A stretch of DNA of 64,000 bases from Patescibacteria group bacterium UBA5532 (GTDB lineage: Bacteria; Patescibacteriota; Gracilibacteria; BD1-5; UBA2023): NCBI GenBank assembly GCA_002426885.1, contig DINU01000003.1, positions 17,634 through 81,633 of the forward strand, read 5' to 3'. Under the pieces are notes generated by a model, which was not told the DNA's origin, did no database searches, and was given only the letters and a program-made list of their open reading frames with translations. The translations under genes and the position numbers were made by a program. This document shows, one piece after another, positions 1-64,000 of the stretch. The number at the start of each line of letters is the position of its first letter. Within the stretch, counting starts at the first letter, position 1.

Positions 1-242
1 AAATTAATCAGACTCGTATAGGAAAGGAGTCGTTTTCGTCCATATATATCCGAGAGTTTTCCGAAGGTCATCCCTCAGAGAAAGACACCGATCGCATAAA
101 TCGCCTGACTGTATCAGGTCCACGAGGCACTCATCCCGAATGCACTGATGATTCACGGAAGAAGTGGGATGAAGAGGGACATTCCGAGGATATCGAGAAA
201 CGCGGTCACGAGAATCAGTGGAAGCTGAGATTTTTGGATCAT
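1..242 (-). CDS. MFS-type transporter, N-terminal part (gene continues beyond the left edge)
   Basis: ATG at 242-240 (minus). With TGA=Gly it reads MIQKSQLPLILVTAFLDILGMSLFIPLLPGIISAFGMSASWTGYSQAIYAIGVFLGGMTFGKLSDIYGRKRLL. This covers TM1, TM2 and the G-x-L-S-D-x-x-G-R-K loop typical of MFS_1 drug:H+ antiporters. 3 in-frame TGA. Track ORF 4-267 is another frame and looks spurious. Confidence 0.7.
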
Positions 243-335
243 AGGGTAAAATGAGAAAAATATACATGCAAAATCTTTCGAATTCTATCGAAAGATTTTT
301 GTTTGCAAAAAACGTATAACTTGGAAATAAAGCGA

Positions 336-3300
336 TTATTTTCTTCTTGGTTTTTTATCTTCTCGCATATAGACCTCATAGTAGATTCACTTCACGACGA
401 AGAGCGTCAGGAAGGATGCGGCGATAATTCCGAAGATAATAGTGAATCCCATACCCGACCAGAATGGATCTTTCATCGCGATCGGCACCATACCAAGCGC
501 GGTCGTGAGTGTCGTGAGCGTCATCGGCTCCAGTCGAGATGATCCCGCTTCCACGAGCGCCGTAATTCCGCGCATTCATTTCTCGAGATTCTCATTAATC
601 GCAGAGATCAGGATGATTCCGTGGTTCACAGCGATTCCGGTAAAGGCGATAAATCCGATACCAAACGGGATGGAGAACTGATTGCCAGTAAGCAGGAGTC
701 CGATCATAACGAATGGAAGCGACATGATCACTGAGTAGAGGATAATAATAGGCTGCAAGAAACTATTAAACTGGAGTGTCAGGATCGCGAAGATCACGAT
801 AATCGCGAGGAAAAATGATGAGAATGTCGCGATGATCAAATCAGAGTTTTCCTCATTTTCTCATCACTGAGAATAGGAAATGCCTTTCGGGAAATTATAC
901 GTCGAGGCGAATTTATTCAGTTCTGCTTGTTTTGTGAGTATGCTTTCTCCGTCGGCAAGATCAGCATCGACCGTGATCTCGATCTTACCATCGGCACGGA
1001 CGACGCTCGCGATCGCATTTTTTACACGCGTATCGACGAAGTCTCCGACACGATATGATGCCGTCCCGAGAGAAAATGGAATATTTAAGACATCTTCCAT
1101 TCGAGCTCATGAGAGAAATGTATCTGTCTTCAGGATGACGTCCATATCTGATCCATTATTCTCGACTGTTCCGACAGTGACACCGTTCATATTCTGTGTC
1201 ACTGCACTATATATGACTGATGGCGAGACTCCATAGTCTGCGAGAAGATCTTTTTTCAGAGAAAATACGAATTGTCCGGGAGTCTCTGTCGAGCTCGTGC
1301 CGACATTTTTCATGCCATCCATGGATTTCATATGTGCCTGGAAATCCTGAGAAACTTCTATCAGATCAGGAAGATCAGACGTCTCCTCAGCGACGAGCTT
1401 CAGCCCGACTGCTTTCCCCCCGGGAGGACCATTTTCCGCGACAGTACTTGTCACCTTAAATCCTTCTTGTTCGAGGGCAATCAACTTATCATAAATCTCC
1501 GCTTCGAGCTCAAATACAGAACGCTGTCCTTCCGCTTCACGAACTTGAAGTTTCGTGAGCTGAACACTGATACTTGCAGTATTTCCATTGATCGATGTCG
1601 CGACGTACTCGATCTCTGGATACCCAGAGAAGTACGATGTCCACTCTCAGACACGCTCTACCATGGCATCTGTCTCGAGTCAGACAGGTCACTCGATGGT
1701 GAATGTCGTCGATCCATTATCGCTATTCGGGAAGAGATTCATTCCGATCGCTGGAGCGAAAGCAAAAAAACCAAACAAGAAGAATACTACCGGGAGAAAT
1801 ATCGAAATCCGCCGTAATTTCGTATGTTCGAGGAAGTTCCGTAGGACTCACTTATACCACTCAGTTACCCTATGAAGGACACGAATCCGAAGTGGAGCGC
1901 TCGTCTCGAGTGTAAGTGTCTTCCCTTCGCGCTCTAATTCAAGGAGTTCTTTTTCCATTTCATCTGCATATTCCATCACGGAGTCACTCTCGATATATGT
2001 TTTTTTCTCACGAACAAAAAGGAGATAGAGTGCACTATTCACGGTAAGAGCGAGGACGAGTCCGCTCGCAAGGACTCAGAAAATCGTAATCGGAATGTAT
2101 GCGAGGAATTTTCCCATAATGCCCGGAAGCATCATCATCGGGATAAATACGACGATCGTCGTGCTGACTCCTGCGATAATCGGGATCGCATATTCACGCA
2201 GTGCGAGCATGATCGCAGAACGTGGAGAGTATCCGATACGGAGCTTCGCACTCGCAGCCTGGACGATGACGATGATCGTATCGACCGCGATTCAGAATGA
2301 GAGGATAAATGAGAAATTCGTAAGGAAGTTCAGAGAATATCCGAACTGATTCAGGATGATAAACGTGACGAGAAATGCAAGCGGAAGTGTCAGTGTCGCG
2401 AAAAGTGAGTCCTTAAATCCGACGAAGAAAAACATTGCCACGAAGACGAGAATCAGCGTCGTGCCACCCTCGCGAAGAAGATCGCTATAATCATCTCCGA
2501 TCATATCCGCGAGATCATTTCCGTAGATATATCCATAATCTTGGAATTCTTTCTTCTGAAAAAGCTCAGCGATGCGCGCCTTCGCGCCTTCACTCGCCGA
2601 GAAGATGCTCGCCGAGTCAGACTTATTTACTGTCAGTCCGACATAGGTATATGGTATACTTCCTGTCCCGAGCATGAGTGTGTTCGAAGAAGTATCCTTG
2701 TAGGTCCGTTCGATTGTCGCGATATCCCGCAGTCGGACCATATCTCCCGATGGGAGTGTGATCGGAGTATTAAGGAATTCGAAGCTTGTTAAATTCTTTC
2801 ACTCGATACGATAGTCGTATTTTTTTTCTCCGAGGGAAAAGTTGCCGATCGGCTGATCGACATTATACGATCGTACGATACCTGCGATCGAGGAAAGCGT
2901 GAGTCCGAGTGCATCGAGTTTTTCCTTCGGAATAACGATCGATACATCATAGACGGTCGAGTCCCCTGCTCCTCCGACGGTCACATTCGCGCTCGAGAGA
3001 CTTCCTGCACCGAGATCGACGGAGCTGACTCATGCGACTTGCTCGAGCTCTTTCTGGAGTTTCACAGCATGATCGATCATGAGTGCCCGAGAATCAGTAT
3101 TTTTCTTATTATAAATGAAGACTGAGAAAATCTGGTCTGTATTCGTCTCGATATCTGTCACGACGGGCGTGTTCGCATCCGATGGAAGTGAAACACGAGT
3201 GACAGCATTCCGCACATCACTGACGACATCTTTCGAGTTCGCAGTCGTCTTCAGTGTGAGAACGAGCGATGAATATCCGAGCCCCGATGTGCTATCGATC

Positions 3301-3572
3301 GTGTCGATACCTTTTATGTCCTTGATTTCTTTGTAAATCTTATCAGTGACAAGCGAGTCCATATCCTCTGGGTTGGTCCCTGGATATGACGTCGAGATAG
3401 AGATCATCCCGAGTGTGACCGCTGGGCTTGATTCTTTTGGGATCGTGATAGCGGCTGAAAATCCGAGTACGACGAGAAGGATAACTGCGAGGTAGGAAAC
3501 TCGGTATTTTCGTACCCAAAAACCAAAGAATCATTGCTCAAAATAATTTCTCAGTTCTGTAATTCGTAACAT
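336..3572 (-). CDS. RND-family efflux permease (AcrB/AcrD/AcrF type)
   Basis: Track fragments 387-575, 576-839, 864-1100, 1107-1484, 2292-2741, 2799-2984 and 3030-3407 share one frame and are separated only by TGA. The 1485-2291 gap was checked codon by codon and has no TAA/TAG. N-terminus: MLRITELRNYFEQGFFGFWVRKYRVSYLAVILLVVLGF...SYPGTNPEDMDSLVTDKIYKEI. C-terminal TM blocks: LQPIIILYSVIMSLPFVMIGLLLTG and RLEPMTLTTLTTALGMVPIA. Both match ACR_tran architecture. True stop TAA at 336-338. Confidence 0.88.
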
Positions 3573-3606
3573 AGAATAGAAGGTAAATAGCTGAATGAGG
3601 AAAAAA

Positions 3607-5508
3607 TTATTTCGTTTCCTTTACGAGTTTCTGTTTTTCTGGATCAAAATTCTCGATACTCGTCATGATAATCTCGGCATCTGTGGGAAGTGAAGTCAGA
3701 ACCTCGATACTTTCTCATCGAAATGCACCAAGCTGAATAGAGACAGCTTCGGGAAGAAGCTCGCTTCCGCTCCGCGTCAGAAGATAAATCTGTCATTCGT
3801 TCTCACTCACGATATGGATCATATCGAGCGGAAGTGAGAGATCGAGGGAAGAAGTCGTCGATCCACCTCTGACAGTGAAAAAGACTTTTGCTGACTGTCC
3901 GATCATCGATTCCCCGGCTGGGACAGAGATACGTGTCGTGTAGAGAAGATTCGAGTTCGCGATACGCGAGACAGCAATAATCGTCCCGGAAAGTGTCTTT
4001 CCACTGACCTCGATCGAGACGGCATCACCGACCTGAATCCCGTATGCGACAGCTTTCTCTATATCGAGTGAAATCTCTGGCTCGAGCGAGACCATCTCGA
4101 CGGCTGGAGTCCCTGCGTTCAGTGACTCTCCCGGAGAGACCAGAATCTTCGTGATTTTTCCGCTGATTGGTGCATCGATCGTGAGTTTTCCATAGTTCGT
4201 CTGTGCCTGCAAGAGGCTGATCTGTGCATTTTCGATTCCGACATTTGCCTGAGAAATTCAGAGATCGCGATTTCTTCTTGCAGTATCAAGTGTGCGCTGA
4301 GCCTGATCGAGTGCGAGTTCTGCACTTCTCTGTGCATCCTGGAGTCCGATCAGTGTCCGTACATATCCGATCGATGCCCCACTTGCGCTCGTCTCTATAT
4401 TTTTCTCAGCGATCGCGAGCTGTGCCTTCAGAGATGCGAGATTTATCTCTATCGAATTCAGTCCCGTTACTGCCTGAGATTTCCATGCAGAAAACCCAGA
4501 GTTACCTGCAGTAATCTGCGTCTTGTAGCCAGTATAAAGGGAAATCCATCCATCGATCTGAGTCTGTGTCAGTCCACCTCCGACGAGTGTGTTCTGAAAC
4601 ATCGTGATCATAGAGGAGTTAAAATTCCGAGCTGCCGTATAGACTGCGGTGATTTTCGCAGTTTCAGCCTCGACATTTTCTCGTGTGATTACGAGATTCT
4701 CATCAGCACGAAGTGCTCCGATCGCCGCATAAAGATCTCCCCAGTTATTGTCAGAATCATTTTTTATATTTCCGAGCTGTGTCCCGAGAAGTGGCTCATA
4801 GACATCATTATTATGTTCCCAGTATTCACTGATTCCGAGAATCTTGTCTCCATCGTAGAGCATCGCTGTGACTGTCTTATCGACCTCATTTGCATAGAGA
4901 TGAAAGTTTGCATCAAGATTGGTGATCGTATTTTCATAGTCTTGATTTGCGGCTTCAAGATCAAGACGAAGCTTATCGATATTCAGTGAAGCGACGGATC
5001 CAGTATTATTCGGATCTGCGTTATTATAGTCGAGCTGTGCCTGCTTCTCCTGCTCAGCGACATCACGAGTCAGGGTATCGTATGCTCGCTGTGCCTGAGC
5101 GAGTGCGGTCTCCGCATCAGCGACTGCACGATCGAGTGAAAGCCGTGTCGTCTCGAGAGAGGTGCTCTGAGTTTTTACTCATACTTGCGCCTGTCTCAGC
5201 TGGATACCATACATTCCGACGGTGTCTGAAAGCTTTACGAGTGCCCATCATGCCTGCGTAAAATCCCCTTCTTTCAGAGGAATTTCCTGGACTTGTCCGA
5301 CTCATTCACTCGAGAGTGTCAGAGTCGATCCAGCAGTGAGTCGTGCAGAGGACTCGACCGTGTACGTTCCGGAAGATGCCGAGAGATCGAGCGTCTCGAT
5401 GTAAAAAGCGGTTTTCCCAGAGCTTGTATCAGTCCCTGAAGAAGTTCATCCACATGATGTCAGCGAAAGAAGAGAAAAAAGAAAAATAGGAAAAAAGAAC
5501 TTGCGCAT
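3607..5508 (-). CDS. RND efflux periplasmic adaptor (membrane fusion protein), lipoprotein, unusually long (~633 aa)
   Basis: ATG at 5508. Signal plus lipobox: MRKFFFPIFLFSLLSLTSC. MFP-like lipoyl/barrel motifs: GQVQEIPLKEGDFTQAGWALVKL and KLTIDAPISGKITKILVSPGESLNAGTPAVEMV. Fragments 3793-4212 and 4258-4863 are joined by TGA. The region 4864-5508 was translated by hand with no TAA/TAG. TAA at 3607-3609. The gene ends 35 nt upstream of the RND start. Confidence 0.82.
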
Positions 5509-5534
5509 AAAGAAAGCAAGAGAAAAATAAAAAA

Positions 5535-5807
5535 TTATTGATTCATTTCTGATTTTATGTACTCGATAAAGTGCTCGAGATCGTCTGCTTTTATGAGTCA
5601 CACCATCGTATCATGTTTCGTGAATATGAGGAGGGTGTCATCAGGAGCGATCTTCAGAGTATCTCGAATATCTTTCGGGATGACGATCTGTCAGCGTGAA
5701 CCGACTTTTGCAGAACCATGCATCTTCACGCACTGATGTCGGCATATATCAGACTGCTGAGGATCAGATTTCTTTGAGTCCTCATCGTCTGTTTTCGGAA
5801 GAGACAT
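5535..5807 (-). CDS. AbrB/MazE/SpoVT-family DNA-binding protein (90 aa), first gene of the efflux operon
   Basis: No ORF in the track (2 in-frame TGA). Hand translation: MSLPKTDDEDSKKSDPQQSDICRHQCVKMHGSAKVGSRGQIVIPKDIRDTLKIAPDDTLLIFTKHDTMVGLIKADDLEHFIEYIKSEMNQ. The G-x-x-G-Q-I-V-I-P-K-x-I-R motif is the SpoVT-AbrB looped-hinge helix signature. TAA at 5535-5537. Confidence 0.75.
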
Positions 5808-5808
5808 A

Positions 5809-5835
5809 AAAGTATGAAAAGTATGAAAAGTGTAT
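5809..5835. repeat. Tandem 9-bp repeat AAAGTATGA x2.6 abutting the abrB-like start codon
   Basis: aaagtatga aaagtatga aaagtgtat lies directly 5' (minus-strand sense) of the ATG at 5807. On the coding strand this reads ACTTTTCAT ACTTTTCAT ACTTTT-ATG. Confidence 0.8.
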
Positions 5836-6059
5836 TTCCGATGAGTATACTATAAAATTACAAAAAGCAAGTGATTTTTTCTTTTTATACTGTGAGAGAT
5901 TGTCTTGCGAAGATTCTCGCTCCTATATCGAGGAATATCTATAATGTACCGGGTCTCTTATTACTTTTCCCACACCACGAAAGCAGAAAGCCGGAAAAAG
6001 AAAGAAAATAAATTTTGTAAAAAGAAGACCCATCCTATAATAAAACCATTCATTTTATT

Positions 6060-6890
6060 ATGTACCTCATGACTCTTCACTCTTTCTCTTCTCGAACGAA
6101 GATGCTCGTATGATTTCTGGGAGTATTTCTCGCATGAGGTGTGACCTATGCAGTGATAAATTACTCGGAGTGTTTTCCGAATGGATGTGACATATATCAG
6201 TCACAGGCAAATGGATGGACATCTCCGAAGACAACGACGACGAAGGATATCATGACTCCAGAAGGATGTAGACGGATTACGAGGACGAATGCAGTCACAG
6301 ATACGTATTTTATCCCGACGAAAACACTGGCAGAATGGGTCAGTTTCAGAGATAATCCTCCATCAGGAGTCTCTATCGGGACATGTGGTATTAATGGAGT
6401 CTGTGGAGCATCAAAAGGAACATGTTCTGCAGGAACACTCAGTAACTACAATGCATGATCATGTGGTGGAAATGCGACATGGAAATGTCTCGGAAGTAAC
6501 GGAGGAACTACAGCTTCATGTACGTACTATAATACTCCGAGTCCAAATATGGGAAATGTGTGTACCTATCCATGTTATTGGAAGCGAGCGGCGCGATGGC
6601 ACAATCGACCTGCAAGTCTCGGAGGAACAAGTGGAGGAGGTATCTGGTGTAATCCCACCGTTACAGCGCCTATGCCTCCTGCTGATTGGTGAGTGGACTG
6701 GCCTATTCTTCAGTACTATTGTAGTGGGCCAAAGCCAACATCCGCAAACGGTATCAATACGGTTCTCATTTACTACAATAACTGTGAGGACTACCCTCAA
6801 TTGGATCAAACTCGATGTGATGTTATGTGTAGAACTACAGTCAGAGGAAGGGTACAGTGTGATGGATCGTGTGGATGACCATGGCAGTAA
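6060..6890 (+). CDS. Secreted Cys-rich protein (276 aa), function unknown
   Basis: ATG at 6060. N-terminal hydrophobic signal/anchor: MYLMTLHSFSSRTKMLVGFLGVFLAGGVTYAVI. 22 Cys. Contains GINGVCGASKGTCSAGTLSNYNAGSCGGNATWKCLGSNGGTTASCTY, which I recognise as the recurrent G-x-C-G...W-x-C-x-G-x-N-G-G-x-x-x-x-C module of many bacterial surface proteins. 5 in-frame TGA link track ORFs 6141-6458 and 6693-6878. TAA at 6888-6890. Confidence 0.7.
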
Positions 6891-6984: not shown

Positions 6985-8151
6985 ATGCCCTTTCTCCCCT
7001 TTCTTCGAAGTTTCTTCTCAGAAGCTTTCTTCCGCACGCTCATCGCGTGGGTACTCCTCATCGGACTCCTCTTTTTTTTCCACTCATTTCTCTGACTCTT
7101 TCTGATTACATTTATATTCTCATATATTTTTTATCAGCTTTCTCATGCGCTTGCGCGATTTCTCCTTCGGAATAGCCCGAAGAAAGGAAGGTTACTTCTC
7201 ATAGAAAAATATCTGAATTATATCGTTAGCGTGGTGTATGTGATCTTTGTCATGCTGATTATTTTTCTCCTGATAAAAATCGTGCCGATCATCATAAAAG
7301 AAGTCGGCGATCTGATCCGTCATGCGCCAATGCTCGTATCCAACATGAATGATATGGCAGTGAGAACAGAAGCGGCTTTTAACATCGATCTCGGACTGAA
7401 TACCTACCTCGCCGAGAAGATCAATACGCAAAATATCGAACAGATCGGGAGTGTCGTCCTGAAAAATCTGAGAGATATCAGTGGGATCGTGATCCAGATC
7501 TTGATCGGACTGTTGCTCTCTTTTATTTTTATTCTCGAGAGAAAAAGTATTATTCGGTTTTTCGATACTTTTAAGGATGGAAGTTTCTGATTTCTCTATG
7601 AAGATTTTGCGTACATCGGGAAGAAATTCGCGAATAACTTCGGATTTATCATGGAAGCGCAGGCGATAATCGCCTTCGTAAATGCGATCCTTACATCTGT
7701 GGGGCTCATGCTTATAAGCTATATTCATGGATGACAGCCATTTCCGTATATTCTGACGCTCTCGTTTATCGTCTTTATTTTCGGATTTATCCCAGTACTC
7801 GGGACGTTCATCTCTGCATTTCCGATACTGCTCATCGGCTACGGATACGGCGCGATCACCGGCGATCAGTATGTGATTATCCTCGCATGTATCGGCATGA
7901 TCGCTGTCATTCATGCAGTCGAGGCGTATTATCTGAATCCACGAATCGTCTCGTCATACATGCATTTTCCTGTTTTTGTGACATTTTTGACACTCATCGT
8001 CGCGGAGCATTTTTTCTGACCGATCGGACTGATTATCGGCGTTCCACTTTTTTCGATTTTCCTCTCACTCATGAAGGACTTCGACCGCTATATTCAGAAG
8101 GTACATGAAACAGTAAAAAATCTTCCCGCAGAAAAATGCCCCCAGAAATAA
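6985..8151 (+). CDS. AI-2E family transporter (PerM/UPF0118)
   Basis: ATG at 6985. 388 aa. TM-rich, with the family-typical C-terminal block GFIPVLGTFISAFPILLIGY...AVIHAVEAYYLNPRIVSSYMHFPVFVTFLTLIVAEHFFGPIGLIIGVPLFSI. In-frame TGA codons at 7588, about 7731 and about 8016. TAA at 8149-8151. Overlaps the miaA start by 16 nt. Confidence 0.8.
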
Positions 8152-9038
8152 GCACATTTCAGAGAGAAAATATACACCCGGTCATTGTCGTGTTCTGACC
8201 GACTGGATCAGGAAAAACATCGCTCTCGATCCGTCTCGCGAAAGAGTGCGATGGAGAGATTATTTCTGTCGATGCGCGACAAATATATCGGGAAATGGAT
8301 ATCGGAACTGGAAAAGTCACGCCCGAAGAAATGGGCGATATTCCACACTATATGATCGATATTCTCTCGCCTGAGATCGCTTTTTCTGTCGTGGAATTTC
8401 AGGAGATGGCGAGGAAAATCCTCGCTGACATCCACGCTCGTGGAAAAATCCCGATCCTCTGCGGTGGAACGGGACTCTATCTCGATAGCCTCATCCTGAG
8501 GCGAAGTTATGCGAGAAATGAACCAGACTGGACGCGACGAAATGAACTGAAAGAACTTTCAGAAAAACGTGGAAATACAGAAATCTGGGAGATGCTTCGT
8601 GCGATCGATCCAGAATCTGCGATGAAAATCCATAAAAACAATATTCACGGTGTTATTCGCGCGATCGAAGTATTCGAGTCGACAGGACGATCAAAAACAG
8701 AGATACAAGACGTTCCAGAGCTTCTTTTTCCAACACTTTTCGTGACGCCATACGATGGGAATCGAGAAAAGCTCTATACGAAGATCGATACTCGTGTGGG
8801 AGAAATGTTTCGAGAATGACTCATCGATGAAGTGAGGCGCCTCCGAGAAAAATATCCGAATGCTCCTGGGCTCAAAACGATCGGATATAAGGAAGTGATC
8901 GAGTGTCTCGATGGAACGATCGATCTCGAGCAATGTAGAGCGCTCGTCGCACAACATAATCGGAACTATGCGAAACGGCAGATCACCTGGAATGCGAAGT
9001 ACTCGACACTCGGGAAAATTCTGACGATCGCCCCATAA
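8136..9038 (+). CDS. miaA: tRNA dimethylallyltransferase
   Basis: MPPEISTFQRENIHPVIVVF[G]PTGSGKTSLSIRLAKECDGEIISVDARQIYREMDIGTGKVTPEE...ILCGGTGLY... The P-loop Gly is encoded by TGA at 8196-8198. A second TGA lies at 8817-8819. TAA at 9036-9038. Confidence 0.93.
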
Positions 9039-9749: not shown

Positions 9750-9791
9750 TATACAGCAAGGAAAGGCACCCAGGAAGATAGAGAAAAACGA

Positions 9792-10079
9792 CTACTCACA
9801 CTGCGTACTTCGCCTCTCCATAAGTTTTTGTCGTGCGTGATCGGAAGCATTCAGTATTTTTCAGATCGGTTGCGGTATGTGTGTATCTTCTAGTTTGAGC
9901 CTTTGCTCTTCTCGTAATTCCCTCAAAACTTCTGTGACTCTTTCTGGATTTCTTACTTCCTCGCATGTCAGAGCTGCGATAACGCGCTCTTGAGTATCCT
10001 TCACTACCGGTTGAGGTTTCTGTGCGCTTAATATTAGTCCTCCAACAAGAAGACCTACTACTCACATTGCTTTATGCAT
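9792..10079 (-). CDS. Small membrane-anchored protein (95 aa), unknown function
   Basis: ATG at 10079. MHKAMGVVGLLVGGLILSAQKPQPVVKDTQERVIAALTCEEVRNPERVTEVLRELREEQRLKLEDTHIPQPIGKILNASDHARQKLMERRSTQCE. 2 in-frame TGA. TAG at 9792-9794. Preferred over the overlapping R/S-rich track ORF 9796-10065, which is in another frame. Confidence 0.5.
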
Positions 10080-10251
10080 ATACCATTCATAAAAAAATAA
10101 CAGATAGCCGTTATAGATAAATAATTACTATTGTCAATTTATTTTCATTTTTATCCCACGAGAATTCTCCTCGCGAAACCCGCAAAAAGCATTTTCCTTT
10201 TTTATTTTTCTCCATACAATACGCGGAGATTTTTACTCAAAAGCCAAAAAT

Positions 10252-11385
10252 ATGAACCACTTCGAACGTTCACTCGAACTCCATAAGAAATACCGCGGAA
10301 AACTCGGAACGGTCTCGCTCGTCCCCGTCGAGACGCGCGAAGATCTATCATGGGCGTACTCTCCGGGCGTCGCCGAGCCATGTCGTGCCATCGTAAAACA
10401 TCCCGAGACACTCTACGACTATACCCTGAAGTCACGCACCATCGCGGTCATCTCAGATGGATCCGCTGTCCTCGGACTCGGAAATATCGGACATAGGGCG
10501 AGTCTCCCGGTCATGGAGTGAAAATGTATTCTTTTCCGCAAATTTGCGGAGATCGATGCATTTCCGATCATCATCGGGACGCAAGATATCGACGAGTTCA
10601 TCCAGACAGTAAAAAATATCGCCGACGGATTCGGCGGGATCAATCTTGAAGATATTTCTGCTCCTCGCTGTTTTGAGATCGAGGAACGGCTGAAGCAAGA
10701 GCTCGATATCCCAGTCATGCATGATGATCAGCATGGGACGGCGATCGTCGTACTCGCAGGGATTATCAATGCACTGAAGATTACCGGAAGAAAAAAAGAA
10801 TCCGTAAAAATCGTGCTGAATGGCGCAGGTGCCGCGGGCGTCGCGATCGCGAAGCTCCTCTATCTATATGGGATGAGTCATATTCTCGCCTGTGACTCGA
10901 AAGGGATTCTCCACACTGAACGTGAAAATCTCGATATTTCGAAGCAGAAACTTCTCGAGTTTACGAATGCAGAAAATCGCACCTGAGATCTCAGTGATGC
11001 GCTCGTCGGGGCAGATATATTTATCGGGGTCTCCGCTCCATGAGTCCTCACTCCTGCCATGATCCATGTCATGAATCCTGATCCGATCGTCTTCGCACTC
11101 GCGAATCCGACGCCCGAGATCATGCCAGAAGTCGCGAAACAGGCGGGTGTCCGGATCATCGGGACTGGACGATCTGACTATCCGAATCAGATAAATAATG
11201 TCCTCGGATTTCCGGGTATTTTCCGTGGAGTCCTTCGTTACCATAAGAAAGAAATCACCGACGAGATGAAGATCCGTGCATCAGAAGCGCTCGCGAGCTA
11301 TATCCAGAATCCGACTGAAGATATGATCCTTCCTGATCCACTCGATAAGTGAGTCGTCGAGGTCATCGCAGAGGCTATGCGATAA
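10252..11385 (+). CDS. NAD(P)-dependent malic enzyme (short, about 377 aa form)
   Basis: [16 protein letters not shown]...[25 protein letters not shown][G][16 protein letters not shown]...[22 protein letters not shown]...[15 protein letters not shown]...[10 protein letters not shown]...[21 protein letters not shown]. 4 in-frame TGA join four track ORFs. TAA at 11383-11385. Confidence 0.9.
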
Positions 11386-47087: not shown

Positions 47088-48209
47088 TTATGAAGAAATA
47101 ATAAATGATTGTAGTGTTTTCTTGAATTTTTCAAGGGAGAAAACTTCCGCGCGTGCGACACAGTCATGTTTCATAGAAACAAAAACAGATGTATTCGTCG
47201 TCTGTATCACGTTTTTTAGTTTTTTCTGAAGTGTATCTGAGTCAGAATATCCCGAGAGAAGAAATCCCGTCTTCCCATCGAGAATCGTCTCGCGCAGTCA
47301 TCCTTCATCGACACCGATCACCGGAATTCCGCACGCCATGCTCTCGACGGGCGTCATCCCGAAGTCTTCATTTATCGGTATATAGATCACCGCGAGAGCA
47401 CCTCGAATCAGTGAAATCAGCACAGCATCATCAGGTGATTCGATCGCCTCGATATTCGGAAACGCATGAATCTTCGCAAGAATCTTCTCTTTCTCAGGAT
47501 CATTTTTTCCATAGGTAAAAATCAGTCGCTTCTCGGGCATCTCACGAAATGCGTCAATAATGACATCGACTCGCTTCGGCGGAGAAAGTCGCGCAAAAGA
47601 GAGAAAATACTCGTGCGCGGTGTTTTTTTCTCCTGGGGAAAAACGTGTGGTATCGACTGGCGGATAGAGGATCATCGAGTCATGATGGCAAAAATCCTGC
47701 AGTCGCTCCTGTGTGCAGAGGGAATTGGTGAAAATACGATGAAATCGGTCAAGATCGCGGATATACGCTCGCGCGAAGAATGTGAAGGCGAGCGAAAAAA
47801 TCGGGCGAAAAATCGGGGAAATCCGCGCGAGATACTGCTCTCGAAAATCGAATAAATATCGTGGCGGTGTATGACAGTAGTAAAAAGTCGTACTTCCCTT
47901 CTGGATATGACGTAGTGCCGGAAGACAATCTCAGGAGAAAATCACGATATCATAGTCTCGGAGGAGAGCTGCACGCGTGAGAAAACGCCATTTCAGGATG
48001 AGATGACGCCAGACTTTTTTCTGGATTGGCTTCCCGAGTGGAATGATTTTCCCTGTGAATCCGAGCTCTCTCGGGTCGAAACTTCCCGGAGAGAAAAATC
48101 CCGCGATCAGATCAGCACCGAGCGCATTCGCCATAAGCGTCACAAATCGTTCGCCTCATCACTTATAGAGGAAAGCATCGTGGATGATGGCGATTTTCTG
48201 CTGGGACAT
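47088..48209 (-). CDS. Glycosyltransferase family 4 (373 aa)
   Basis: MSQQKIAIIHDAFLYKGGGERFV... C-terminal Glycos_transf_1 block: FLSFARLSPPKRVDVIIDAF...INEDFGMTPVESMACGIPVIGVDEG[G]LRETILDGKTGFL. Track ORFs 47931-48143 and 47298-47675 are in frame. TAA at 47088-47090. Confidence 0.85.
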
Positions 48210-48352
48210 AGTGTAGGTATCGGACGAAAACTTTATGTATCACATTCTCTTATCATTCCTGCGAAGGCAAGAATCCATATACATGGACGAATCATACGCC
48301 GAATTTCTGAATACTTCAAAACGATATGTCTGGCATTATCTGCGTAAAAACT

Positions 48353-48937: not shown

Positions 48938-50293
48938 TTAAATACTATTTCTCAGATTATCGACGTCTCACGCTCCGAGTAGGAGAATAATCGAGGAGTT
49001 CGGATTTTTACTATCATATTCTCGGATAATTTTCCCAGTATTCTCGAGTCATTTCCCATCGAGAATATGAGGCTGATACGGTCGTACCGCCTCGATAAAA
49101 CGCTCGACCGTCATGTATTCGACGTCTTCTTTTTTATCCCGAGAAAAATAAATATCAGGCACGACGAGCATGTCTGCCGCATCGAATGCCGTCGCAAAAG
49201 CAGGCAGGAGCTCACGCGTGCGAGAATACTGGTGGGGCTGAAAGACGACATAGAGCTTCCGATCAGGATATTTCTCACGAAGCGCAGAAAGTGTCGGGAT
49301 GATCTCATTCGGATGGTGTCCATAATCCGACATGAGGATATTGCCATGATATGTCGTGCGGACGATCTCAGAGCGACGCCATGAGCCATTATACGACTGG
49401 AGACGATTTACCATAAATTCATCTTCGAGATCGAGCAGTTTCCCGACTGCATACGAGAGATATGCATCTTTCTGGATATGTCTCCCCGGAATCTGGAGTA
49501 AAATCGGTGGAAGTGAAAAAACCTTGCATACATCAGCGCCACAGTTATATTGCATCGTGCCATTTCCGACGATGACTTTTTTCTCTTCGGGAATCTGGAG
49601 ATGCGCCGAGTTCTCATCATCCGCAGAGATAACGACATATTTCTCGGTCTGATCGACGAGTGACTGAAATGCAGAGATATAATCATCGAGATTTTTATAG
49701 TAATCGAGATGATCGAGGTCGATATTCGTGATGACGGTAATATAGGGCTTATATCGGAGAAATGCGCGCCGATATTCGCACGCCTCGATGACGAAATATT
49801 CCGAGTCTTCTGCATGAAAATTGGAGTTGCCGAGCTGAGGTACCTGTGTCCCGATGATCACATTCGCACCGAGAGGCGATCCTACGAAGATGAGTGCTGT
49901 CATCGCAGTCGTCGTCGATTTTCCGTGTGAACCTGCGATCGCGATACATTTTTTACTATTTACGACTTCCGCAAGCGCCTCCGGATAGGAGAGATGGGGA
50001 ATATGAAGATTTTTCGCTTGTGCAAGCTCTGGATTGCTATAAATCTGCTGATCCTTCGGAAAATCTGGCTTCGTGATAATCGCCTCTGAATAAATCACGA
50101 GATCGGTATCAGGTGTGATCGCACTCATCGTGTGACCGATCGTCACCTCAATCCCCTCTGCTCGAAGCGTGACAATCAGTGAAGATTCTGTCTGGTCTGA
50201 TCCGGTGATGCGATATCCGAGCGAGTGATAGTAGCGAGCGAGCGCCGATATTCCGATCCCCCCAATCCCTATAATATGGAGATGTTTACTCAT
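48938..50293 (-). CDS. murC: UDP-N-acetylmuramate--L-alanine ligase
   Basis: HIIGIGGIGISALARYYHSLGYRITGSD...IAIAGSHGKSTTTAMTA...VIEACEYRRAFL...ITNIDLDHLDYY...SDYGHHPNEI. The 414-aa track ORF continues through 2 TGA to TAA at 48938-48940. Confidence 0.92.
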
Positions 50294-50502
50294 AGTGAAG
50301 ATTATGTGATGAGAAGAATGGTATAAAAAAGAGAGGAAAAAGCAAAGGAAAAAATCCGCAGAGAAAATCGCAGAACAGAGGGATTTTCCCGAGAAAAAAA
50401 TCTACGTATGAATTCTCGAACGTAGGAATCTATATGGAATCTTCTGTAAAAAAATAAAACACGCCAGAGGTGTTTCATTACTTCGTGGAAGCAGGAATCC
50501 AT

Positions 50503-50706
50503 ATGAAAAACGAGGAAACAGTCGAGTTCTCAGGGGGAGTGGAATACGAAGTGAAAGTCTGGGAAAACTGCCAGATTCATGTGTGTGAACGGGTCGAGGA
50601 ATGCGATCATGCAGAAACTCCCGAAAACAAAGGAAACATTTGCAGGAATGAAAGATTGAGAGTAAAAACTATTGACAAAATAATTGAAATCGTTATAAGG
50701 ATTTAG
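50503..50706 (+). CDS. Small Cys-containing ORF (67 aa), hypothetical
   Basis: MKNEETVEFSGGVEYEVKVWENCQIHVCERVEECDHAETPENKGNICRNERLRVKTIDKIIEIVIRI (within track ORF 50470-50706). TAG stop. No homology recognised. Confidence 0.3.
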   Translation: MKNEETVEFSGGVEYEVKVWENCQIHVCERVEECDHAETPENKGNICRNERLRVKTIDKIIEIVIRI

Positions 50707-50773
50707 TTCCATTTTCTAAAAATTTCTTTATGTCAGAAAACCCACCACCTTCGAGCGTACAACACAGCGTGTA

Positions 50774-51016
50774 TTGGCAACATCTGGGATCCTGGCTGCG
50801 GTGGCACTTCTTGTTGCTTCATGTATCAAGAAACCAGACAACTCAGAAATACCAAATGCCTCGGTGATGGCAGCTACTCACGATCAAGTACAAGTGTTAC
50901 TCACCTATGCAATACAGGATATGGAATGAAAGACACAAGAAGAAAGGGGGGTAATCGCCACCGAAACTCTAGAAAAAGCACAGAAAATGTTGGATAAAGC
51001 ACAATGAAATAAATAA
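50774..51016 (+). CDS. Small putative lipoprotein (about 80 aa)
   Basis: The frame is open from 50720. It reads ...RKPTTFERTTQRVLATSGILAAVALLVASC (lipobox) IKKPDNSEIPNASVMAATHDQVQVLLTYAIQDMEGKTQEERGVIATETLEKAQKMLDKAQGNK. There is no in-frame ATG, so the TTG at 50774 was taken as the start. The nearby ATG at 50730 is out of frame. 2 in-frame TGA. TAA at 51014-51016. Confidence 0.4.
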
Positions 51017-52081: not shown

Positions 52082-52825
52082 ATGAAAACTCGAAACTGGC
52101 TTATGGCATGAGTGTATGCCATGGCATTGTCATGCAGTCCGAATCCCACTATTGGGAATACGGGACCCCTCCAAGAGGTACAGAGAACTACTCAATTCCG
52201 CATTGCGCGCTGTATTCCACAGAGTGAATTTCATGCACTTTTATGAGTCCTGATGCAAAGTATACACGCTCAGGTAGAAGTACTCCTGCTACAAAGAGAA
52301 TGAGAAATGCAATTATGAACAAATGTATGAGAAATAGATACAAAATATAGTGCTCTACTCGAAAATATTCTACACACCCCTCTGTGACAGTATTATCGAG
52401 CATACACCCAGCAAGAATCCACCACACAAACACCCGAATTGTGCGTTTCGGAAAATCAGTTTGAGAATCTGAAGACAGCATGAGTCCAGGAATTTGTTCG
52501 ACAGCTGAGGGAAGTACTAGGAGAGTGGTATAAAGCGCAAGAAAGACTCACACAAAAATACCAGCAACAGCTCGCTGAAATCAACCAACAAGAAAACAGC
52601 CCATCCACGCCAGAGACTCAGAAAGTAAAATTTACAACAAAAAGACAACTCCTCAATGAAAACTATCAGAAGGAGCTGGATGCCATCGCCAAGAATTATA
52701 TAGAACTCATCCTAGCATTTCTAGAAAGTCCACTCTGAAAACACAGCATGCCATTTCTCCGGGAAGAAAGCGGAAAAAGTATCGCCCCCGTCTGAGAATC
52801 TACACCAGAAATATATACATTCTAA
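52082..52825 (+). CDS. Lipoprotein (247 aa), Q/E-rich
   Basis: Absent from the track (9 in-frame TGA). All lines were read in frame. MKTRNWLMAGVYAMALSC (lipobox) ...QFVRQLREVLGEWYKAQERLTQKYQQQLAEINQQENSPSTPETQK... TAA at 52823-52825. 4-nt convergent overlap with queA. Confidence 0.65.
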
Positions 52826-53976
52826 TCTCTCAGATACATCCCATCTCCGAAGCTATAGAATCGATACCGATGCTCGATCGCATGCTGATAGAGCCTCTGT
52901 ACATTCTCGAACGAGGAAAATGCGGAAATCAGCACGAGAAGGGACGACTTCGGAAGATGAAAATTGGTGATCATCTCATCGACAACCTGAAAGATATATC
53001 ACGGGAAAATGTAGATATGCGTCTCGAAGCGAAATCTCCCACTCGCATGCTCATACGACTCGACGAAAGAATGCGTATGAAGCGCGCCCATCTTCTTATC
53101 CCAGTACACCTGCACTTCCTCGGGGTACTGGGATTTTTCTTCAGGAGAGAGGATCATCCAGAGATACGGAAGACTCTCGAGTGTTCGACAGACAGTCGTC
53201 CCGACTGCGAGGATTTTTCACTCGGACTGATGGATCTCGGCGACGCGAGAGAAAAGTGTATCAGAGATCTCGATCACCTCGCCATGAATCGCATAATCTC
53301 GGATATCCTCCGTCGTAATTCACTTAAAAGTCCCGAGCCCGACATGAAGCGTCACATATTCACGCGCATGCGGAAGTCGCTCGAGGAGAGAATCAGTGAA
53401 ATGAAGCGAAGCGGTCGGTGCCGCGACTGAGCCATTTTCCGTCGCAAAAACCGTCTGATAATCTTTTTCTTTCTCACGATCATACGCGATATACGGCGGA
53501 AGCGGAAGCTGTCCGTACTGCTCCATCGTCTCATAGATCGAGCCTTGTGTGATCGAGAAAAGTCTCCCAGATTCTGTGGTGGCGATCACTTCGAGTTCTA
53601 GCGCCCCGATAATAATTTTTACTCATTCACGAAAAAGGCGTCCAGGACGGACGAGTGCCTCGAAGCGATCCGATCCGTGCATTTCCAGGAAAAAAATCTC
53701 GCCATTCTGCTCGACTTTCTGACTCCCATCAGGACGCAGAATCGTCGCCTGATCGAGTGGGATTCGTGAGCGAAGGACACGAGAGTTATTGAAGAAGAAG
53801 ACTCGATCGGTCGGAACAATCTCAGGAAGTTCTGCGTACGTCGCCTCTGTCAGGATCGCTCCAGAAATCCGATCCGCCACGAGAAGTCGCGCCTGATCAG
53901 CGGGATGAACCGCTTCCTGAGCGATCAGCTCGGGAGGAAGATGATAATCGTATGAAGCGAGAGAAAAATCTGACAT
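52822..53976 (-). CDS. queA: S-adenosylmethionine:tRNA ribosyltransferase-isomerase
   Basis: [33 protein letters not shown]...LPLPPYI...YQTVFA...[13 protein letters not shown]...[11 protein letters not shown][G]...[14 protein letters not shown]...[16 protein letters not shown]...[11 protein letters not shown]. Track ORFs 53623-53976 and 53320-53589 plus a hand-translated 3' third. 4 in-frame TGA. TAG at 52822-52824. Confidence 0.9.
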
Positions 53977-54245: not shown

Positions 54246-56681
54246 CTACTTTCTCTGGATCATCTTATAGAACTCGAGTACGTCACCTTCCATGACAACG
54301 ACGTCCCCCTTGAAGTTAATTCCGCATTCGTCCCCTGCCTCAACTTCGCGAACATCGAGTGGTCCGACCTTCAGATTCACGACTTCTCATGATCCGACTT
54401 TTTCTCCATTTCGGATGACTCGGACTTTTGCCCTATTCTCGACTTTTCCAGATGTGACGCCGAGTCCGATGATCATCATAGATTTATTTTTTCCTGTGAA
54501 AAATATCGCCTTCACCTCCGCGATACCGATATCCGTCGCATCATAGTGAATATCGATCATTCCGGTGATAATCGACTCGACTTTTTCGATGATGTGATAG
54601 ATGACTTTCTTATCGATATGCTCGATCTTCGAGCTCGAGAGGATGCTCTTCGCAGAGGGAACGACACCGACATTATACGAGATCAGGAGCGCCTGCGAAC
54701 TTCCAGCCATCATCACGTCAGACTGATTGACATCTCAGACAGCAGAGTGGATAAAAGTAACCTGCGTCTCGAGTGTCGAGAGTTTTCCGAGTGCCGTCTT
54801 CAGAGCCTCGAGCGACCCGACAGAGTCCGCTTTGAGGACGATCTTGAGCTGTTTCAGGGCTCATGACTTCAGACGAGTCATCAGCATTCCGAGCGATGCT
54901 CACTCGAATGAGTGGATCGATTTTCGTCATTTTGCCAGAGAAAATTCTCGTGTGCGTGCCTGTGCTGCCTCGAGCGAAGACATAACCTGCAGAATATCTC
55001 CTCATTCTACGATACTCGAGAGTCCAGTAATCTGTGCTGGGACTCATGGTCCGACCGCATCGATATTTTTTCATCGGAAATCCTTCAGTGTACGGACACG
55101 ACCAGATGAGTCAGTGATCACGACTGGATCACTCCGTCGAATCGTCCCTGTATTTACGAGAACATTGATGACTGGTCCGAGCTTCTGATCGAGATGTGCT
55201 TCGATAACAGTCGCGACTCATGGTCGATCAGGATTCGCTTTCAGCTCGAGCATATCTGCCGAGAGAAGGATCATATCGAGTAGAGTCTCGATCCCGAGTC
55301 CTGTATGTGCCGAGACTGGTACAAGGATCGTCGATCCACCCCATTCTTCTACTTGGAGTCCTTGCTCTGCGAGCTGTCACTTAATCAGCTCAGGATTCGC
55401 TCCAGGTTTATCCATCTTATTCATCGCGATGATAATCGGGATATTCGCTTCTTTTGCGTGATTGATCGACTCGATCGTCTGAGGCTTCATCCCTTCATCA
55501 GCTGCGATGACGATCACGGCGATATCTGTGAGCTTCGCACCACGAGCACGCATGATGGTAAATGCTTCGTGTCATGGAGTATCGAGAAAAGTAATCATCT
55601 GACCATTTCGTTCGACCTGATACGCACCGATCGATTGTGTGATTCCCCCTGCTTCTCCCTGCGCGACCTGTGTCTTACGGATGTAGTCAAGAATCGATGT
55701 CTTTCCATGATCGACATGTCCCATGATCGAGATCACAGGTGGTCGTGAGACGAGTGTCGCCGTCTCATCTTCTTTCAGAAGGTCTGTAATATCTTGATTC
55801 AGAAGGTCGGTGATGGATGCTGAGTCTGAGACTTCTTTCACGACACTGATCTGAAATGATTCCGCGATCAGGTAGCATGTCTCGAAGTCGATCGGTGTAT
55901 TCAGTGAGACAAGCATTCCACTTTTCATCATTTCTGCCATGATCTGTGAGAGTGGAACTCCGATCTTGTCAGAAAATTCTTTTACCGAGATCATATCTCC
56001 GATCGATACCGTCTGTCCAGTTCGATCGACCAGCACTTGCTTAATATCCTCGATCGATTTCTCTTTTTTCTTTCCATTCACTTGTCCTCGGCGGAAAGAA
56101 AGCTCCTTTTCTTGTCTCTCGGCACGCTTATCCTTCCGGTTTTTGGTGTCGAAATTCTTCCCATGTTTTGCGGATCCATCACGTTTCGGAGTATCGTAAC
56201 CGATATCTCGCTGAAAAATCGGCTTCGAATTATCACGAATCCGACTCGAATCCTCACTATTTTTTTGTTCGGAGCGAGGCTTTTTTCTGTGATCTTGGTC
56301 TTCCTTCGGGACCTGTACGACGGGACGATTCTCGAATTTCTTCGGCTGAATCTTCTCGAAAGAAATCGCCGGTCTCCGCTCTGGTGTCGATCATTTTCCA
56401 TGATCATTCCGAGCAGTATTCTGATCGGCATTTTCCCGGATCATCGACTGCATCAGCCCAGCGCTCGCATGCTCGCGCTTTATGAGTCTCGCTCACTGAT
56501 GTTTTGGTGCTTCCGGCTCTTTCGCGACTTCCGCTTCCTCGCTCGTCGGAGTGTCTACTTTTTTTGGCTTTATCTTCAGCTTAACTGGAGATCATTTCTG
56601 TGTCGCCTGAGATGTGTTCGCGCCCCCCTGTGTCGCCTGAGCGTAGTAATCATCTTGTATATTCTCAGATGATGAAGTCAT
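54246..56681 (-). CDS. infB: Translation initiation factor IF-2 (811 aa)
   Basis: Basic low-complexity N-terminus. G-domain motifs: [20 protein letters not shown] (G1), FLDTP[G]HEAF (G3, Gly = TGA at 55572-55574), IIAMNKMD (G4). C-terminus: ...[11 protein letters not shown]. All gaps 54717-55571 and 56082-56681 were checked in frame. TAG at 54246-54248. Confidence 0.93.
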
Positions 56682-56847: not shown

Positions 56848-58395
56848 CTAAAGAAGCTCACGGAATAATTTTCATTGATCAGGATTTTCTCGGAAGAAGA
56901 CTTTGATACAATCTGATTCAGCGGGTGTCATTTCATAATCAGATTCGATGATCTGTATAAGAAGTGTTGCTATATTATCTGGGAGTCATCGGATCGCTCG
57001 TTCGAGCTCGTCCCGTTCCACGAGTAGCCCTGGTCATGGCGTATCACTTGCCATCTTTCATGCGATGTGATTCTCTATGTCATCAAGAGAGAGTGCTCCG
57101 TCCAGTATCCGATCAGGAAGTGTTCATTCCTCCTGGTATCGCCGCACTGATCTCTTGTTGCGTCGGAGGCATCGAAGTCAGAAGTATATCTGATGTTGAT
57201 CCAGATCGGGGAGCCGCTCGAAGAAGGTATCGAGTGGAAATATGGGTGCTACTTTTTCTTTTTTTCCACCACAATAACGATAGCGCATATAGTGAGTAAG
57301 GGATATTTCCCCCTCGAGAGAAAGTTCTTTCCATTCCTGAAGATATTGGTGTGCGCGTGGTACTGCTATAGGATGATTAGGATACTTCCACCGAGGGAAT
57401 TTTCGGGCTAATCGTAAGGTAAGTTTACGATGGAAATTATCTATATTTCACTTATGTCCGAGTTGCCATGCAAGTGATATGAATCACTCTGTTGAATTAT
57501 AGAAATCTTCCCTTCCCGCCACCACGGCAAGGACCTCTTGCTCCAGAGAGAGAATACGTTTTCATGTTGTGCTCGCCTGCAATGACCACTGCATTTGCGT
57601 CCCCACGTCTCTTGGAATAATCTTCCAGAGTTCTTGGAGGGACACAGTTAAAAGGTCGTGATCCTCAAGAAATACGAGAAGACCATCTCGTCCCTGATAT
57701 TTTTTTCTTTTACTCTCATCCAGGCTAGATAGAGACGAACACGCGGTACGTATCGTACCCACCTGTTCTGGTGAAAAAGGTGTCCAAGCACCCATAACTC
57801 TACGGACATACCTTGGAATGCGTGCAAAAAGGGTAGAAACTGAAATATTCAGTCCGCTATCCTGCACCCACTCTACCAATCCAGTTTTCGTGTTATATTT
57901 CTCTTTATTTTCCTGAATACGCTGCTCCGAATTCTTGGGAACAAGATCAGAGAATGCGTAATACATATCCAAAATTGCTCTGTATCCAGTATTCGTCCTC
58001 AAGCATATATTCGACAGGTGTGAAAGTTTCGCTAGTCTTGCTGAGTATTCCCCTGGAATCGCATAGTACAGATGTACATATCTCATGAATGTGACGGCAT
58101 TTCGTAGGAGTTCTCTCCCCTCTCCGAGATAGAGTTCCTGTCTTTTCTTTCGAGAATTTTCTGCTTGTTTCTTGCCTTTTCTCCTCGCTCTCTTATTTTT
58201 GATGTCATATTGCCTTATGTCGACTCATTTTCTCTGAAGAGTAACGTACGGATATGGCAACCTATCGAAGGGTACTCAGCTAACAAGTGCATGAAAGCGT
58301 TTCGCTGCTTCTTCCATGATTTCCGTGGGGATACTTTTTCCAGGGCTCGACACCCCCTTCCGCATATCCACACTTGCTTTCATTCTTGCTGACAT
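56848..58395 (-). CDS. Hypothetical basic protein (up to 515 aa), orphan
   Basis: Track ORF 57562-58086 extends in table 25 both downstream (11 TGA, to TAG at 56848-56850) and upstream (2 TGA, to the ATG at 58395). It has a K/R-rich segment DIKNKRARRKGKKQAENSRKKRQ. The C-terminal LVERDELERAIRGLPDNIATLLIQII is faintly reminiscent of sigma-70 region 4. The start is uncertain (other ATG codons at 58383, 58365, 58317 and 58086). Confidence 0.5.
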
Positions 58396-59256: not shown

Positions 59257-60243
59257 ATGACTCAGCATCCAGAACAGCAATATCTCGATCTCGGACTCGA
59301 TCTGATCGAAAATGGAATCTATAATAAAGATCTCTGAGGTGGCGATGTAACGTATAGTTTTTTTGGGAGACAATTTCGCTTCGACTTTCAGGATGGATTT
59401 CCACTGCTGACGACGAAGAAAGTCTACTGGAAGTGAGTCGTTGCGGAGCTGATCTGGTTCCTCCGTGGAGACTCGAATATACGTTTTCTCGTAAAAAATA
59501 ACGTCCATATCTGGGATGACTATCCATATTACGCATATAATAGAAAAGTAGAGAAATGACTCGAGCCATCGATGACAAAAGAAGAATTTATCGAGAAAAT
59601 CGGAAATGATGAGGACTTCGCACGTGCACATGGGACACTTCCGAAGATATATGGTGAGCTCTGGCGTCGTTGGCCGACAAAAGACCCAGGACGAACGGTC
59701 GATCAGATTGCATGGATATTACAGGAGCTGACAGAAGATCCATATGCGCGGAATACATGTCTTTCTGCATGGAATCCAGAATATCTCTATACGATGGCAC
59801 TCCCAGATGAAGCGGCTCGGTATCCGATTTGTCATGGATTCTCACAGTACTCGATAAAAGAAGGGAAACTCTATGGACAGCTCTACCAGCGATCTGCGGA
59901 TATATTCCTCGGTGTTCCTTTTAATACAGCTTCTTACTCTCTGCTCGTACATATTCTTGCGCACCTTCTCGGAGTCGAGCCAGGAGGATTCATCCATACA
60001 TTTGGTGATGTCCATATCTATGAGAATCATATAGAACAGATGAAGGAGCAAGCGACTCGTACACCTCGTCCATTTCCGAAGGTCACGATCGATCCGAACC
60101 TGAAATCCATTGATGAGATTGATTTTCATCATATTATCCTCGAGTGATACGATCCATACCCGCCGATTAAGGCAGAAATGGCTTTTGTATGAGGGATGAC
60201 GGGACGAGAGAAAAAAGATGAGGAAGGAGGAGAGGTGCTCTAG
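59257..60243 (+). CDS. thyA: Thymidylate synthase (ThyA), L. casei/Bacillus-like long form; end shown assumes TGA read-through
   Basis: [19 protein letters not shown][G][16 protein letters not shown]...[12 protein letters not shown][G][14 protein letters not shown]...LSAWNPEYL...[11 protein letters not shown]...[27 protein letters not shown]...[12 protein letters not shown]...[15 protein letters not shown]. The TGA at 60190-60192 falls at the canonical C-terminus. The next true stop is TAG at 60241-60243. Confidence 0.9.
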
Positions 60244-62390: not shown

Positions 62391-62392
62391 AA

Positions 62393-63393: not shown

Positions 63394-63533
63394 CCAGGAT
63401 AAAGAAGGAAAAAACTCGATTTTTTAAGAACAAAAAACAGGGAAAAGCGTGTCATCCTGAGTGAAACGAAGGATCCATATCCGTGTACGAACCAAAAGTT
63501 CAAATTTCCATGAAAAAGTTCTTTGCCAAGAAT

Positions 63534-63560
63534 CCTGGATTCCAGGATAAACCTGGAATT
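63534..63560. repeat. Short dispersed intergenic repeat, copy B (CCTGGATTCCAGGATAAACCTGGAATT)
   Basis: Matches copy A at 31996-32023 except for TG/CA and a 2-nt A-run length difference. Confidence 0.7.
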
Positions 63561-63606
63561 ATAAATATTTCGTCTTATTCGAGTAAAAATGCTATAAATT
63601 GGAATC

Positions 63607-63855
63607 ATGAAAAAAATCCTCATCTGGTCGATCACACAATATCAGAAATATCTCTCTCCCGATCATAGTGTCTGGGCGAAGCATAGCCATCGACTTCCCT
63701 ACTGTAAATACACTCCGACCTGCTCAGAATACGCGAAGGAATCGATCGAGAAGAAATGAGCTATTATCGGCTCAGGAAAAGCACTCTGGCGAATCCTCCG
63801 CTGTAATCCATGGAGTAAGGGTGGCTACGATCCAGTGGAGAAGAAGAAGGGGTAA
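63607..63855 (+). CDS. yidD: Membrane protein insertion efficiency factor YidD (82 aa)
   Basis: [50 protein letters not shown][G][26 protein letters not shown]. Family motifs Y-x-x-x-x-S-P, C-x-x-x-P-T-C-S-x-Y and R-I-x-R-C-x-P. 1 in-frame TGA. TAA at 63853-63855. Confidence 0.85.
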
Positions 63856-64000
63856 ATATTATCCTGTCCTGCTTGGTGAATTCAAAGAAGGAGAGAGAAT
63901 AAAACATTACCACCCCCCACAAAAGATCGGTTATATTATTGGGGGAATATTTTCGAGTATATTCTAACGTCCGAATGTATCATATTTTCAGCACTGTTAA

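Follow-up and report, generated by a model that had tools for sequence, protein, structure and literature searches.

UGA read as glycine across a 64-kb genome fragment of Gracilibacteria type

The 64,000 bases analyzed here (positions 17,634 to 81,633 of contig DINU01000003.1, henceforth the window, with its own positions counted from 1 to 64000; G+C content 44.7%) are read with UGA as a sense codon that means glycine, and the other codons that we tested keep their standard meaning. The window is almost certainly chromosomal DNA of the Gracilibacteria (BD1-5) lineage within the candidate phyla radiation (CPR), using NCBI translation table 25, and ca. 91% of it is coding once TGA is translated as glycine. 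This reading had been proposed in an earlier inspection of the bare sequence (the original prediction), the claims of which we followed up by recalling the genes, by aligning the TGA sites to proteins of standard-code organisms, and by comparing the DNA of relatives codon by codon.

Long reading frames and the TGA codon

Six-frame, stop-to-stop open reading frames (ORFs) of at least 300 amino acids number only 7 under table 11 but 69 with TGA as sense, and freeing TAG or TAA instead of TGA yields no more than 8 of them, so that the recovery of long ORFs is specific to TGA. Greedy selection of non-overlapping ORFs covers 67% of the window at a median length of 101 amino acids under table 11, compared to 94% at a median of 250 amino acids when TGA is sense; both coding density and ORF length are thus restored only if TGA does not terminate. 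A first gene call based on greedy choice of the longest ORFs had picked ORFs on the wrong strand, e.g., 3595-6159 (plus strand) and the 5' part of 20939-22984 (minus strand), and was replaced. In the final gene model, a codon-usage model trained on the long table-11 ORFs was used to rescore all ORFs bounded by TAA or TAG, followed by a check against Pfam.

This model comprises 57 genes that occupy 91.4% of the window, in good agreement with the original estimate of about 90%, and contains 281 in-frame TGA codons. The original prediction had further held that every conserved gene is broken at TGA, which was slightly overstated: At least one TGA is found in 50 of the 57 genes, and seven genes, including those for LtrA, an MscS-like channel, a GNAT protein, and a DUF308 protein, are free of it. 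The claim that only TAA and TAG terminate the reconstructed genes was borne out for every gene lying wholly within the window. In 29 genes, Pfam domains span the TGAs at full length; these genes carry 139 TGAs in 12,452 codons (11.2 per 1000), where TGA makes up 15.8% of the glycine-class codons, and end on TAA (18 genes) or TAG (11 genes).

Glycine at the TGA sites

All sites cited by the original prediction proved exact, with a TGA at the given position, on the given strand, in frame, and within the given motif, and the genes that hold them were identified by Pfam. On the plus strand, TGA encodes the first glycine of the P-loop in the tRNA isopentenyltransferase MiaA (8139-9038, two TGAs; VVF[TGA]PTGSGKT at 8196-8198) and lies in the motifs PVME[TGA]K (10519-10521) of malic enzyme (10252-11385, four TGAs) and LEP[TGA]HD (22442-22444) of the queuine tRNA-ribosyltransferase Tgt (22238-23425, four TGAs). 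On the minus strand, it occurs in the motif GWDAF[TGA]LPAE (44487-44489) of a leucyl-tRNA synthetase of 1452 amino acids (LeuRS; 40389-44747, 17 TGAs), in VDEG[TGA]LRE (47298-47300) of a GT4 glycosyltransferase (47088-48284, five TGAs), and as the glycine of the DxxG motif in G3 (DTP[TGA]HEAF, 55572-55574) of translation initiation factor IF-2 (54246-56681, 811 amino acids, 14 TGAs).

With the TGA positions marked as X, six proteins were aligned to solved structures from standard-code organisms. The residues opposite TGA are G, G, A, and L for Tgt compared to the Zymomonas mobilis protein; G, N, A, G, S, A, F, K, G, G, and G for IF-2 compared to Escherichia coli; T, L, V, and G for ThyA (59257-60243, plus strand, five TGAs) compared to PDB entry 3uwl; G, P, G, and G for QueA (52822-53976, minus strand, four TGAs) compared to Bacillus subtilis; G, G, G, and E for malic enzyme compared to PDB entry 5cee; and G, V, L, G, and L for LeuRS compared to Thermus thermophilus. 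Glycine hence faces TGA at 16 of 32 sites, tryptophan and cysteine at none. With a glycine background of 8.7% among the targets aligned to IF-2, Tgt, and malic enzyme, 16 glycines in 31 sites have a binomial probability of ca. 6e-10, and the one non-glycine site that was added after this calculation (31 to 32) leaves the order of magnitude unchanged. In the same three alignments, a control with the standard glycine codons gave glycine opposite GGN at 69 of 97 positions (71%) compared to 10 of 19 (53%) opposite TGA. An AcrB/RND-type transporter of 1078 amino acids (336-3572, minus strand; Pfam ACR_tran, profile positions 3-1018 of 1021) had no PDB sequence match at an E-value of 1e-50 or better, so that its 14 TGA sites are not part of this tally. 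A second standard-code set consisted of 53 ThyA orthologues from CPR and other organisms, each with an uninterrupted table-11 ORF, that were retrieved by scanning genome collections. Each of the five TGA sites of ThyA most often has glycine in this set (40, 48, 26, 22, and 44 of the 53 orthologues, gaps included), and tryptophan is not among the residue counts listed for any of them.

The homologues of IF-2 and LeuRS in the protein database come almost exclusively from Gracilibacteria-like assemblies. Because some of these had been deposited with a table-4 translation, a comparison of proteins within the lineage would have been circular, and we therefore compared DNA instead, using two contigs with IF-2 and 25 loci with close relatives of ThyA. 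Codon by codon, TGA of the window is paired with GGN in 58%, with TGA in 26%, and with other codons in 16% of cases, but never with TGG (0 among 201 cells), so that glycine codons or TGA itself make up 84% of the cells. GGN of the window pairs with GGN in 77%, TGA in 7%, TGG in 0.1%, and others in 16%, while TGG pairs with TGG in 97% and others in 3%, never with GGN or TGA. A separate codon pairing with relatives gave 45 pairs of TGA with GGN and none of TGA with TGG, and the four TGA sites of QueA read GGC, GGT, AAA, and TGA in one of the contigs with IF-2. TGA thus exchanges with GGN and never with TGG, and therefore acts as a synonym of GGN. The central claim of the original prediction, UGA as glycine, is upheld by the standard-code homologues and the DNA of relatives alike.

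The same relatives bear on the proposed host, a CPR bacterium of the Gracilibacteria/Absconditabacteria type. The best match of IF-2 is a Logan contig with 85% identity over the conserved part, the named matches of IF-2 and LeuRS are labelled "Candidatus Gracilibacteria bacterium", and the ThyA relatives at 77% to 85% identity are mostly metagenome-assembled genomes of Gracilibacteria; the Absconditabacteria Absconditicoccus praedator and Vampirococcus lugosii, which have been cultured or described, have lower overall LeuRS match scores. Judged by best hits and by the in-frame TGAs in orthologues of relatives rather than by a tree, the organism is placed, as the original prediction had it, within the Gracilibacteria/Absconditabacteria clade, with Candidatus Gracilibacteria as its nearest relatives. 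We note that five contigs labelled "uncultured Candidatus Peribacteria bacterium" (L004, L006, L013, L014, and L071) encode ThyA proteins 71% to 84% identical to that of the window with one or two in-frame TGAs; these contigs appear to use UGA as sense, and they look nearer to Gracilibacteria than the name they carry would imply.

Competing readings of UGA

Several points weigh against UGA as a general glycine codon of this genome or limit the evidence for it. Half of the TGA sites face residues other than glycine in the distant PDB homologues, nominally somewhat more than the 29% seen for GGN. The cells of the codon exchange are not independent, since the relatives are akin to one another, and the gene models are uncurated, with several short or TGA-rich ORFs (e.g., 44551-45690 and 56848-58395) that lack support from homology. 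A tRNA scan found no tRNA gene in the window, where Rfam gave no match at gathering thresholds either, and a scan of the 27 loci of relatives (ca. 300 kb) found only tRNA-Val and one tmRNA but no tRNA-Gly with a UCA anticodon.

It is highly improbable that the window combines UGA as glycine with further departures from the standard code, be it CGA and CGG as tryptophan codons or a residual stop function of UGA at some gene ends. The former idea derives from Shulgina and Eddy, who predicted CGA and CGG to mean tryptophan in Absconditabacteria and CGG to do so in some Gracilibacteria (PMC8629427). In a Codetta-like test, in which the residues in homologue columns are collected for each codon of the window, no codon but TGA was discordant; the filter against table-4 translations dropped almost all homologues of LeuRS, a protein naturally rich in tryptophan, and the test rests mainly on IF-2. 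CGA and CGG are both common in the window (14.1 and 5.8 per 1000 codons), and their columns contain mainly arginine and lysine with no tryptophan among the top five residues of either, a result that for CGG comes from only 9 columns and in both cases from homologues of the same lineage. On this evidence, CGA and CGG look like codons that keep their arginine meaning. The stops UAA and UAG are unchanged, and so is UGG as tryptophan, with TGG facing TGG or W in 96% to 97% of cases.

The idea of a residual stop is suggested by a single TGA (60190-60192) exactly at the canonical end of ThyA, directly after ...KAEMAFV where the PDB chain of this protein ends. However, the frame continues for 16 codons to a TAG, and the site holds GGA, GGG, or GGT in all 32 orthologues examined, seven of which are labelled as other CPR groups or Bdellovibrionales. 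ThyA of this lineage and of the other relatives examined extends beyond the end of the PDB chain by a tail that opens with two glycines; its sequence is GGMVGRD in the 25 closest relatives, and in the window the first of these glycines is encoded by TGA. A surviving stop was ruled out by the GGN codons in all 32 orthologues together with this conserved tail, and as judged from these alignments the TGA encodes a glycine within a tail that is conserved in CPR.

A reading of UGA as tryptophan, as in table 4, is very unlikely and is refuted by the alignments. Table 4 is the code of Mycoplasmatales, Entomoplasmatales, and several insect endosymbionts; it restores long ORFs as well as table 25 does, so that ORF counts cannot separate the two, and some public homologues were deposited with such a translation (e.g., P0092, "uncultured bacterium (gcode 4)"). 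Yet tryptophan is missing from the TGA positions in both standard-code sets, and TGA never faces TGG in relatives, where TGG itself is almost perfectly conserved. Placing tryptophan instead of glycine at TGA lowers the Pfam scores of ten proteins by ca. 100 bits in total, including those for ACR_tran (420.9 to 398.0), Queuosine_synth (322.4 to 310.7), TGT (453.6 to 444.1), and PLDc_2 (150.9 to 139.9). The tryptophan content would rise from 1.1% to 2.7%, whereas the addition of TGA to GGN brings the glycine content from 5.3% to 6.9%. Among the IF-2 homologues in the protein database (P0090-P0118), many are translated with table 4 and contain up to 7% tryptophan but less than 2% glycine; these entries are in effect mistranslated, glycine-to-tryptophan versions of code-25 proteins, and their richness in tryptophan is an artefact of that translation.

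Even less credible, and likewise refuted, is a standard code in which the TGAs are true stops within pseudogenes or errors of sequencing or assembly. Nothing speaks for it beyond the broken table-11 ORFs. The 139 in-frame interruptions of the 29 conserved genes are all TGA, never TAA or TAG, and are evenly distributed along these genes (Kolmogorov-Smirnov test against a uniform distribution, p = 0.90) rather than placed at alignment ends. Domain matches run across them at full length, and independently assembled DNA of relatives has TGA or GGN at many of these positions. Least probable of all, and refuted by codon frequency and aligned residues, is a purely local recoding by selenocysteine insertion or programmed read-through. 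UGA is the selenocysteine codon of many bacteria, but here it is present in 50 of 57 genes with a frequency of 11 per 1000 codons, aligns with glycine and never with cysteine in the PDB homologues, and is accompanied by no RNA family match anywhere in the window.

With table 25 as the favored explanation, UGA serves as an ordinary codon for glycine (ca. 16% of all glycine codons) next to UAA and UAG as sole stops and UGG as tryptophan. From what is known of the lineage, a tRNA-Gly with the anticodon UCA would read UGA, and release factor 2, its competitor for this codon, would have been lost, leaving release factor 1 to terminate translation at UAA and UAG. Neither prfA nor prfB was annotated in the 64-kb window. 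The tRNA is expected in recoded members of the clade (PMC8629427), and prfB was undetected in every BD1-5 genome available to a previous study while prfA was present (PMC6851277). Proteomics has validated UGA as glycine in a member of BD1-5, where 97 peptides were specific to the translation with glycine compared to 3 for tryptophan and none for a stop (PMC4032931).

Gene content, LeuRS insertions, and known codes

The gene content of the window is ordinary cellular housekeeping; the DNA is chromosomal and neither phage nor plasmid. Besides the genes mentioned above, Pfam identified an HlyD-like membrane-fusion protein (3607-5745, minus strand, 10 TGAs), a cardiolipin synthase or PLD-like protein matching PLDc_2 (34633-36075, minus strand, five TGAs), and a MurC-type Mur ligase (48938-50293, minus strand, two TGAs), as well as an AI-2E transporter, a pyrimidine 5'-nucleotidase, LtrA, MFS and EamA transporters, a DUF2130 protein, a cupin/cytidylyltransferase, and a CYTH protein. 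Proteins whose Pfam domains are covered almost completely across their TGAs include LeuRS, IF-2, Tgt, MiaA, malic enzyme, MurC, the GT4 glycosyltransferase, QueA, ThyA, and the AcrB-type transporter. TGA is absent from four genes of conserved families, encoding LtrA (19629-20870), the MscS-like channel (33001-34068), the GNAT protein (34143-34628), and the DUF308 protein (36105-36683), which may have been imported recently from organisms with the standard code; given their glycine counts, the chance of finding no TGA is 0.014 to 0.15 for each, which is not significant after multiple testing.

Other ORFs stand out by size or by TGA content. A protein of 1256 amino acids encoded at 13972-17742 (minus strand, 15 TGAs) has a signal-like N-terminus and no counterpart in Pfam, and probably represents a large protein that is secreted or displayed on the surface. 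The ORF at 44551-45690 (plus strand), which may not be a genuine gene or frame, consists of repetitive sequence without a Pfam match, in which 18 of 45 glycine-class codons are TGA (40% compared to 16% on average), and its true start is probably near 44877. Three TGA-dense ORFs bounded by TAA or TAG, at 56848-58395 (minus strand, 10 to 11 TGAs), 24386-25294 (minus strand, 10), and 52082-52825 (plus strand, 9), score weakly as coding sequence and match nothing in Pfam; they may be lineage-specific genes or no genes at all. The longest stretches devoid of a called gene are 50294-50866 (573 bases) and 9750-10251 (502 bases), in which the scans for tRNAs and RNA families found nothing.

The most unusual thing that we saw beside the code is a series of insertions in LeuRS. 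Aligned to the T. thermophilus enzyme, this protein splits into five collinear blocks with four inserts between them, and the inserts are large at all four sites. Site 1 (residues 249-436) holds a GNAT domain (Pfam, 45 bits) and site 2 (residues 558-711) a NUDIX domain (Pfam, 39.7 bits) with an intact Nudix box. The four TGA-encoded glycines that the original prediction had noted in such a box are indeed present (42903-42923, minus strand; HFV[TGA][TGA][TGA]MEG[TGA]ESE), but they do not belong to a separate gene, as the box lies inside the reading frame of LeuRS. Site 3 (residues 780-847) is an insert of 68 amino acids, seen in the alignment. Site 4 (residues 1157-1371) has a predicted ITPase/Ham1 fold, based on a weak Pfam match to Ham1, on a structure predicted with a pLDDT (predicted local distance difference test score) of 94, and on a fold search in which the best 27 structural matches are all of the Ham1/ITPase/RdgB type with E-values down to 3e-10; a PDB sequence search with this insert gave no match.

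Among the 120 closest homologues of this LeuRS, inserts of at least 100 amino acids occupy site 1 in 21, site 2 in 46, site 3 in 7, and site 4 in 19 proteins. The ITPase module is found at site 4 in 19 of these homologues and at site 1 in four, and other relatives carry serine hydrolase or PDDEXK domains, but none of the 120 combines GNAT, NUDIX, and Ham1 domains. Our literature search found no paper describing these insertions. We tentatively suggest that LeuRS of the window and its UGA-recoded relatives might carry inserted domains that are exchangeable and have so far not been described, at four variably occupied loop sites of this essential enzyme and with the ITPase module at different sites in different lineages, though we would not put this beyond an informed guess. 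If true, the insertions would physically couple nucleotide-sanitizing or acetyl-transfer activities to the charging of tRNA.

For the annotation of the contig, the choice of code matters. Under table 11, 50 of the 57 genes would come out shortened or in pieces, much as the original prediction had warned, and table 4 would place tryptophan at glycine sites; since both err, the code needs to be recognized before the contig can be read functionally. The reassignment itself has been known since 2012-2014 and is found here in the lineage where it is expected, and it raises no new question about the genetic code. What the window adds is one more Gracilibacteria fragment, with relatively high G+C content and moderate usage of UGA.

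Compared to known systems, the window agrees in every respect with table 25, the SR1 and Gracilibacteria code, in that UGA means glycine, translation ends at UAA and UAG, UGG encodes tryptophan, and the nearest relatives are Gracilibacteria. No difference in the code separates them, though IF-2 and ThyA of the window are at most 85% identical to anything that we retrieved, and UGA provides ca. 16% of its glycine codons whereas some relatives use UGA for nearly all glycines. With table 4, the window shares the release of UGA from its stop function and the same effect on table-11 ORF calls, but the amino acid is tryptophan there and glycine in every test performed here. The extended code predicted by Codetta for Absconditabacteria (PMC8629427) likewise has UGA as glycine in a related lineage; it differs in its additional reassignments, which were not seen in the window, where CGA and CGG are abundant and align with arginine and lysine.

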